A stretch of 64,000 bases of DNA from Myxococcota bacterium (lineage in GTDB: Bacteria; Myxococcota_A; UBA796; CAJQPC01). The notes beneath the pieces are model-generated. The model was given only the letters and a program-made list of their open reading frames with translations, searched no databases and had not been told where the DNA came from. Below are positions 42,080-42,280 of this stretch, piece by piece. The stretch lies in NCBI GenBank assembly GCA_036012755.1, contig DASCPX010000014.1:64001-128000 (forward strand), written 5' to 3'. Every line of letters begins with the position of its first letter. Position 1 is the stretch's first letter. The translations under genes and the position numbers were made by a program.

Positions 42080-42099
42080 GCTCGGGTCCCAGGCGTGCG

Positions 42100-42122
42100 A
42101 AAGCCCGCCGCTGGGGCGGGCT
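42100..42122 (-). terminator. GC-rich terminator-like hairpin between lpxC and the small ORF
   Basis: AGCCCGCC-5 nt-GGCGGGCT stem, short T-run on the minus strand. Confidence 0.55.
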
Positions 42123-42145
42123 CTCAGGAATAGTCAGGCTAGCTG

Positions 42146-42193
42146 CTACTTCTTGGGGCCGGGCTTCGGCCGGGGGCTCGGGCGCCAGTTCAT
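42146..42193 (-). CDS. putative 15-aa micropeptide MNWRPSPRPKPGPKK
   Basis: GGAGGT SD 3 nt upstream, all codons G/C-ending, own promoter and downstream hairpin. Confidence 0.5.
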   Translation of the reverse strand: MNWRPSPRPKPGPKK

Positions 42194-42251
42194 GATACCT
42201 CCAGGCAGTCTGGTCGTTGCTGCCTGGGCCGACCCCAGTGCACGCACCCCA

Positions 42252-42280
42252 AGAATGCTGCGCTGCCAACGGGGTGTCAA
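42252..42280 (-). promoter_or_regulatory. sigma70-type promoter
   Basis: TTGACA (42280-42275), 17-bp spacer, CATTCT (42257-42252). Confidence 0.6.

Follow-up and report, generated by a model that had tools for sequence, protein, structure and literature searches.

A conserved proline-rich micropeptide gene linked to two B12-dependent radical SAM enzymes in uncultured myxobacteria-like bacteria

The window, by which we mean the whole stretch of 64,000 nucleotides analysed here, carries a minus-strand micro-gene for a proline-rich peptide of 15 residues which, judged by comparison with its relatives, is a real gene under selection at the protein level and equipped with its own predicted promoter, Shine-Dalgarno (SD) and terminator signals. 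The same comparison shows the peptide to be conserved in a large and uncultured group of myxobacteria-like bacteria; the family is unannotated. It is very probably coupled in function to two B12-dependent radical SAM enzymes, here termed A and B. Our preferred reading, to which we give a probability of roughly 0.55, is that the peptide is a leaderless ribosomal precursor and the substrate of A and B, which would C-methylate or otherwise modify it in a RiPP-type pathway not described before. A RiPP precursor had been a minor suggestion of an earlier sequence-only reading of this DNA, and the linkage to A and B together with the joint loss of peptide and enzymes now make it the best one. The features of the locus and of its surroundings are as follows.

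42252..42280, minus strand: predicted sigma70-type promoter, with -35 box TTGACA (42280-42275), a spacer of 17 nt and -10 box CATTCT (42257-42252)
between promoter and SD, minus strand: leader of ~52 nt
42201..42227, minus strand: leader hairpin with arms at 42227-42220 and 42208-42201, local and not conserved
42197..42202, minus strand: SD sequence GGAGGT
42146..42193, minus strand: ORF of 15 aa, MNWRPSPRPKPGPKK, the proposed precursor or substrate peptide
42099..42125, minus strand: GC-rich stem-loop with an 11-bp stem, probable terminator
41246-42079, plus strand: lpxC, on the opposite flank of the micro-gene from the methyltransferase
42298..43230, plus strand: class I SAM-dependent methyltransferase with an N-terminal extension, divergent from the peptide gene
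43249-44790, plus strand: enzyme A, B12-dependent radical SAM, CX3CX2C intact, no curated family reached
45474..46121, plus strand: HAD-IB hydrolase, above the cut-off of TIGR01490, its membership of the block being doubtful
49092-50504, minus strand: enzyme B, B12-dependent radical SAM, CX3CX2C intact, no curated family reached

The signals that the sequence-only reading had listed on the minus strand are all present in the order given there: the promoter-like TTGACA-17bp-CATTCT at 42280-42252, a leader (~52 nt for a claimed ~50) leading to GGAGGT at 42202-42197, and at 42193-42146 the ORF encoding MNWRPSPRPKPGPKK, in which G or C closes every codon. A GC hairpin does follow, at 42125-42099, its stem being of 11 bp with one G-U pair rather than of 8 bp as first described, and its T tail weak. 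A consensus promoter/terminator scanner returned neither promoters nor terminators at the locus. The argument that such an order of signals is unlikely by chance agrees with a search of the 6.73-Mb genome, in which a rule formulated after the locus had been seen (TTGACA-N16-18-xAxxxT, GGAG and an ORF of 8-45 aa) found only 2 sites. The other site, outside the window (G000:C189 near 101076, plus strand), has an 18-aa ORF rich in Trp, Lys and Pro, MRWKTTPRSLAPWKWSPW. The micro-gene had also been called self-contained, a term that suits it as a separate transcription unit and fails to cover its ties to radical SAM genes lying beyond its own extent.

The ORF is the part of the locus that relatives retain. 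A BLASTN search with 271 bases of the region matched 26 of 61 genomes, mostly over the ORF itself, and of the 20 loci that it returned, the window's own among them, 19 carried the peptide. In the least biased test, based on the best 29 loci chosen solely by their neighbouring methyltransferase and leaving out the window's own, the peptide was found in 28, and the codon differences over 12 codons were 144 synonymous versus 31 non-synonymous. The predicted promoter is conserved as well: among 140 loci (142 distinct loci were gathered, 2 of which were deemed chance look-alikes), TTGAC occurs within 110 nt upstream in 125, versus 504 of 7100 random windows (7%), and in the -10 box 17 nt past TTGAC the A is kept in 81% and the T in 86%. 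GGAG precedes the start codon in most relatives inspected. Stems of at least 7 bp lie downstream in 86/140 loci versus 315/1400 shuffles, and stems with a T-rich tail in 48/140 versus 18/1400. With the ORF kept, the change mainly synonymous and TTGAC upstream, the dedicated micropeptide gene postulated by the earlier reading is well supported.

Leader and 3' part tell a different story, as the former ranges from 14 to 62 nt among the loci and neither has conserved sequence. The leader had been proposed to occlude the SD, of which the hairpin in the window overlaps just the first 2 nt; across 96 loci the median pairing of GGAG with the leader was 0.235 versus 0.37 for shuffled leaders, so that an SD-occlusion switch was rejected and the pairing at the window locus is, on this comparison, a local accident. 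An attenuator or leader uORF was also discarded, since the gene is divergent in 21 of 63 linked loci, its own among them, lies downstream of B in one family (f12) and does not conserve SD pairing. That the locus encodes an sRNA, the second proposal of the sequence-only reading, or is a chance ORF is scarcely credible. The 166-nt transcript does fold somewhat better than its shuffles (z -2.42), but the conservation is biased towards synonymous change, and SD, start and stop are kept while leader and 3' region are not. Rfam covariance models gave no hit at the gathering threshold in the window, the best local score being 22.5 against a threshold of 43, with weak hairpin matches.

Across the 140 loci, selected by a motif filter that demanded W, R, P and the next P and often gathered with patterns that also fix later prolines, the family motif reads M-x(1-7)-W-R-P-[SA]-P-[RK]-P-[KR]-P-x-P, with the core M-x(1-7)-W-R-P-x-P-x-P-x-P. 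The N-terminal WRP is kept and the C-terminus is free to vary (KK, KA, KPR, QD, TLP and others). Only 1-8 residues precede the Trp, leaving no longer leader, and the (x-P)n tail could serve as a follower. Tandem units occur three times in genera g15 and g53 and twice in L142 and P0122; the natural peptide with a triple repeat has 41 aa and the repeating unit 13 residues. In one family member (L072) TTG replaces ATG as the start. Searches of Pfam, NCBIfam and PDB with the peptide gave no significant relative, and a search for the motif fused into longer proteins found none at E<=0.01, which is weak evidence. Among 5406 roughly called proteins of the window's genome W-[RK]-P-x-P-x-P has two matches, and the protein collection searched yielded one match, a tandem-repeat form. 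Only such forms are long enough to enter protein collections, and genome mining has therefore probably missed the family.

A back-translated pattern of the peptide matched 81 of the 154 genomes of the order, compared with 11/154 for the reversed control, and its occurrence differs by family: 20/21 in f1, 2/2 in f4, 17/22 in f5, 11/16 in f6, 29/33 in f7, 1/10 in f2 and 0/49 in f3. A relaxed pattern raised f2 to 9/10 and added f12, a family of another order (14/15). In f3 it gave four chance-like matches, of which one was fetched and is not a family member; in a relaxed search of 5 f3 genomes, 26 matches were obtained versus 22 in the control, none recognisable as a member. Within the lineage the genes come close to being universal, mostly as single copies. 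Sixty-nine loci comprised 66 family members and 3 chance matches, in records mostly labelled Myxococcota, Deltaproteobacteria or unclassified proteobacteria, many of them plainly mislabelled; no cultured host was among these 69 and nearly all are metagenome-assembled. Viral contigs gave 14 matches, 5 in frame and none with TTGAC upstream; one viral candidate (L404), placed after a phage structural gene, was taken as chance.

Within the order, the methyltransferase adjoins the peptide gene in 63 of 66 loci, in tandem in 42 and divergently in 21, and A then follows the methyltransferase. lpxC lies within 1 kb of the peptide in only 16/69 loci. Other arrangements bring the peptide beside the radical SAM genes themselves. 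In f12 the peptide, here of 19-20 aa, is found downstream of the B orthologue at a distance of 79-152 nt in 9/14 loci, away from the methyltransferase; copies of this family that are not beside B (L198, L203, L204, L205) adjoin a membrane protein of ~1300 aa in which a PMT_2 (GT-C) domain was recognised. In f10 the peptide is directly upstream of A and then B in all three such loci (L235-L237), and the same order recurs in L260, L262 and L263. Among A-orthologue loci of other classes the peptide was present in 5/14 (L257, L259, L260, L262, L263) within the stretch fetched, and at 6.3 kb in a sixth; five further genomes have it elsewhere, unlinked from A/B (G479, G499, G459, G407, G347). In these other classes the peptide loci belong to clusters that comprise four to five B12 radical SAM genes, A and B being the sole constant members. 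In L260, L262, L263, L258, L259, L257, L237 and L333 four to five such genes were observed within ~10 kb, with few other genes. L223 has a second peptide copy beside a third B12 enzyme. Metagenome contigs show the orders peptide, methyltransferase, B, A (L294, L330) and peptide, methyltransferase, A (L317, L333).

A scan of metagenome contigs with the peptide only supports the linkage. Of its 65 matches, 29 are in frame with SD and ATG (28 of them of 14-26 aa), 8 of the 29 being one identical peptide; among the in-frame matches, 20 are accompanied in the locus by a B12 radical SAM gene, 5 by the methyltransferase only and 4 by neither, versus none with a B12 radical SAM gene or the methyltransferase among the 36 off-frame matches of similar length. 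In a quick tree of 54 rows, 37 fell into the A clade, many of them selected for having the peptide, and 17 into a paralogous clade with no peptide within 5 kb and one at 6.6 kb. Members of the latter (L238-L250, L269-L274) have 33-38% identity and are often accompanied by more B12 radical SAM genes; they could have a different small partner. Beyond A and B, the genome of the window has about a dozen B12 radical SAM genes; 12 of these were inspected and had no WRP peptide beside them.

Family f3 lacks not only the peptide but also A and B (0/49 for each), which is probably a single event of loss; the relatives are not independent. Other B12-binding proteins were retained in 5/5 f3 genomes tested, so a general loss of B12 use is unsupported as its cause. 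The methyltransferase remains in 38/49 f3 genomes without the peptide, and it was therefore rejected as the defining partner; at none of 20 f3 loci of this gene was the peptide or a radical SAM gene adjacent. Exceptions to co-occurrence exist in both directions. G383 (95% complete) has the peptide with only paralogues of A and B; G369, G375 and G455 (98, 91 and 91% complete) have A and B, and pattern searches did not find the peptide in them. Nor was it found at its predicted position beside B in these three genomes, where promoter-anchored patterns gave too much noise to be interpreted. The peptide of most f2 genomes stands apart from A/B, sometimes in two copies, and lpxC, methyltransferase and A are contiguous without it in between. 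Two properties expected of a RiPP system are thus found, namely a short gene-encoded candidate precursor, recognised by its conservation, and putative modifying enzymes that accompany it by linkage or joint inheritance, save in G383, G369, G375, G455 and f2.

A and B each combine a B12-binding domain with a radical SAM domain holding three Cys, which are the features of class B radical SAM enzymes. Their best NCBIfam scores, all below cut-off, were to BchE (166 for A and 214 for B; cut-off 481) and HpnJ (99 and 166; cut-off 578). Membership of the TIGR03975-type RiPP methylases was rejected, the motif being CX3CX2C instead of CX7CX2C and the scores (70.6 and 96.1 bits) lying below the cut-off of 281.85. 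The structural model of A (pLDDT 83.7) has a fold like TsrM, AprD4, MgmA, CysS, OxsB and TokK, with TM-scores of 0.57-0.67 and identities of 15-19% to these solved relatives; the shared cobalamin-binding and radical SAM fold does not indicate a substrate. The methyltransferase matches Pfam Methyltransf_11/12/23/25, and structure searches with its model (pLDDT 97.9) returned generic class I enzymes only. It probably starts at CTG 42298, 6 nt past a GGAG (42288-42300), as its homologues have MSL and ATG at the alignment column of this CTG. This start would be 18 bp from the -35 box of the peptide gene, so that the methyltransferase transcript would begin inside the peptide gene or run antisense through it. 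Several side observations concern this enzyme. Genomes of g15 with the triple repeat (L010, L011, L061, L073, L082) have a methyltransferase without the first ~30-60 residues, and in g53 the triple-repeat peptide goes with a longer one. Several matches (L104, L110, L123 and others) have an in-frame stop in the N-terminal part, probably reflecting a later start; stops were noted as TGA in G144, G112, G110, G109 and G080, TAG in G058 and G123, and TAA in G043. The HAD-IB hydrolase lies between A and B in 7 of the 8 loci L366-L373 and in none of the inspected loci of other classes. An alpha/beta hydrolase is also encoded between A and B in the window (47606-48427, minus strand), with weak scores to S15 (X-Pro dipeptidyl-peptidase), S9 (prolyl oligopeptidase) and S33, families of interest in view of the (x-Pro)n character of the peptide. 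Among 68 neighbours scanned no recurrent peptidase or exporter was found, and genes with GT-C/PMT_2, GT2, LPG_synthase_TM and SGNH domains flank many loci.

For the pathway in which the peptide is the substrate, we infer binding, chemistry, sites and product as follows. The peptide would be made as a separate unit, probably strongly transcribed from its own promoter. A and B, using SAM, a [4Fe-4S] cluster and cobalamin, would C-methylate or rearrange unactivated positions, the likely sites being the prolines that alternate along the chain and the W-R-P head, which is invariant. The unit modified would likely be that of 13 residues, present two or three times over in some genera. The methyltransferase might often assist by contributing an N- or O-methyl group. 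The product may remain in or at the cell, and a housekeeping role is proposed for it because nearly all of the lineage has the genes, mostly as single copies. This reading is favoured by the selection on the peptide, by a linkage that outlasts rearrangement, by the joint loss in f3, by the paralogous clade of A without the peptide, by the tandem units and by the precedents of clavusporin and bottromycin. Against it speak the lack of a leader and of a constant peptidase or exporter, the CX3CX2C motif with best scores to BchE and HpnJ, the envelope-type genes at many loci, the dozen other B12 radical SAM genes of this genome, the persistence of the methyltransferase in f3 and the exceptions G383, G369, G375, G455 and f2.

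Linkage and co-loss would be accounted for equally if the peptide were a partner of A and B that is not itself modified, that is an activator, scaffold or feedback inhibitor, and the true substrate an envelope lipid or lipid-linked sugar later moved by GT-C enzymes. Such an arrangement is possible though unlikely; it draws on the flanking PMT_2, GT2, LPG_synthase_TM and SGNH genes, on the best family scores of the enzymes, which are those to BchE, to HpnJ and to the lipid B12 radical SAM model, on the HAD-IB hydrolase found in the block in this order and on the inconstancy of any peptidase or exporter. However, no such peptide lies within 5 kb of the 17 paralogues of A, a proline-rich chain of 14-26 aa would be unusual as an enzyme subunit, and the tandem units fit a precursor better. 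Repetition of a unit in tandem is typical of precursor peptides. A more far-reaching reading, possible though unlikely, is a new kind of ribosomal-peptide pathway: two to five BchE/HpnJ-like B12 radical enzymes would act on a leaderless (x-Pro)n micropeptide, the gene set being near-core in several classes of uncultured bacteria, and the product would be a cofactor or a building block made of a modified amino acid, which GT-C enzymes might hand on to the envelope.

A basic proline-rich protein that binds ribosome, RNA or DNA on its own, its place beside the enzymes being inherited gene order, would agree with the promoter and terminator of the gene, its mostly single copy and its separation from A/B in most f2, in 5/14 f12 loci and in the five unlinked genomes named above, as well as with G383, which has the peptide without true A/B. 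We hold this to be improbable, since the gene adjoins A, B or another B12 enzyme in varied arrangements, lpxC and ruvAB being present at some loci and missing at others, is lost together with A and B in f3, has no relatives in PDB and Pfam, and encodes a variable C-terminus unlike that of type II proline-rich antimicrobial peptides. More improbable still is a peptide serving as a disposable scaffold, on which a modified amino acid or small cofactor would be built from Trp, Arg or Pro and freed by housekeeping proteases for the envelope or metabolism. The near-universal, mostly single-copy distribution resembles that of a housekeeping pathway, and the invariant W-R-P head, the clusters that hold four to five B12 radical SAM genes and little else and the nearby envelope-transfer genes would suit it; yet the loci examined show no conserved release enzyme, and of the clustered enzymes A and B alone are constant. 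Modification of the peptide itself by A and B remains the reading we prefer.

Among known systems, the clavusporin pathway (mpc; MpcB with the DUF5825 protein MpcC) resembles the one proposed here in combining a short ribosomal peptide with a B12 radical SAM enzyme, in being widespread and in having a physiological rather than an antibiotic role; according to the accessible part of its description, the enzyme methylates Pro and alternating residues and requires the leader to do so (PMC10849626). That part also describes MpcA as a 39-mer with leader, follower and a hydrophobic core, accompanied by an S9 peptidase and a transporter, and MpcB as a CX7CX2C enzyme in need of MpcC (PMC10849626), whereas here a basic peptide of 14-26 aa without leader goes with two CX3CX2C enzymes and with neither MpcC nor a constant peptidase or transporter. 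Bottromycin, in which Pro is among the residues methylated by B12 radical SAM enzymes, and polytheonamide (PoyB/PoyC) likewise devote several such enzymes to one precursor; in the sections of PMC5682303 available, the known RiPP C-beta methylases carry CX7CX2C, and these two pathways are encoded in large clusters together with further tailoring enzymes, of which the loci here showed none. As to the BchE, HpnJ and ladderane-type enzymes, which include the best-scoring models for A and B, the portion consulted of PMC9204698 mentions no linked peptide. The likeness to ribosome-binding drosocin or apidaecin that the sequence-only reading had noted extends to a short, basic, Pro/Arg-rich chain and goes no further. 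Those peptides are secreted products of animals. Their C-terminal residues are essential, the activity of apidaecin depending on its last residues, and type II proline-rich antimicrobial peptides need a conserved C-terminal segment that ends in Arg plus a hydrophobic residue (PMC11347161, in the part seen); the peptide here is bacterial, has no signal peptide, conserves its N-terminal WRP and varies at the C-terminus, and assignment to that type was rejected.

The system of peptide and enzymes is not described in the accessible parts of PMC9204698, PMC13459092 and PMC13445942, and the literature searched on the topic, which comprised few subscription journals and no supplements, held no description of the peptide with A and B; likewise no paper in it had the motifs RPSPRPKPGPK or WRPAPKP, which catalogues of small ORFs in supplements could hold. 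Cobalamin-dependent radical SAM enzymes are abundant in the genomes of the peptide hosts. A and B reach no curated family that would assign them a substrate, and a peptide of 15 residues, which can be synthesised and which follows them through rearrangement and loss, opens their chemistry to tests in E. coli that need no culture of the hosts. If it is the substrate, it would be a leaderless RiPP of housekeeping-like distribution, modified by a CX3CX2C, BchE-like branch distinct from the known C-beta methylases; and if the reading of a new pathway is true, a large branch of B12 radical SAM enzymes that is so far unassigned would gain its first substrate. Apart from this system, the window contains at 62198-62752 (minus strand) an ORF with a run of GDT tripeptides behind a putative lipoprotein-like start.
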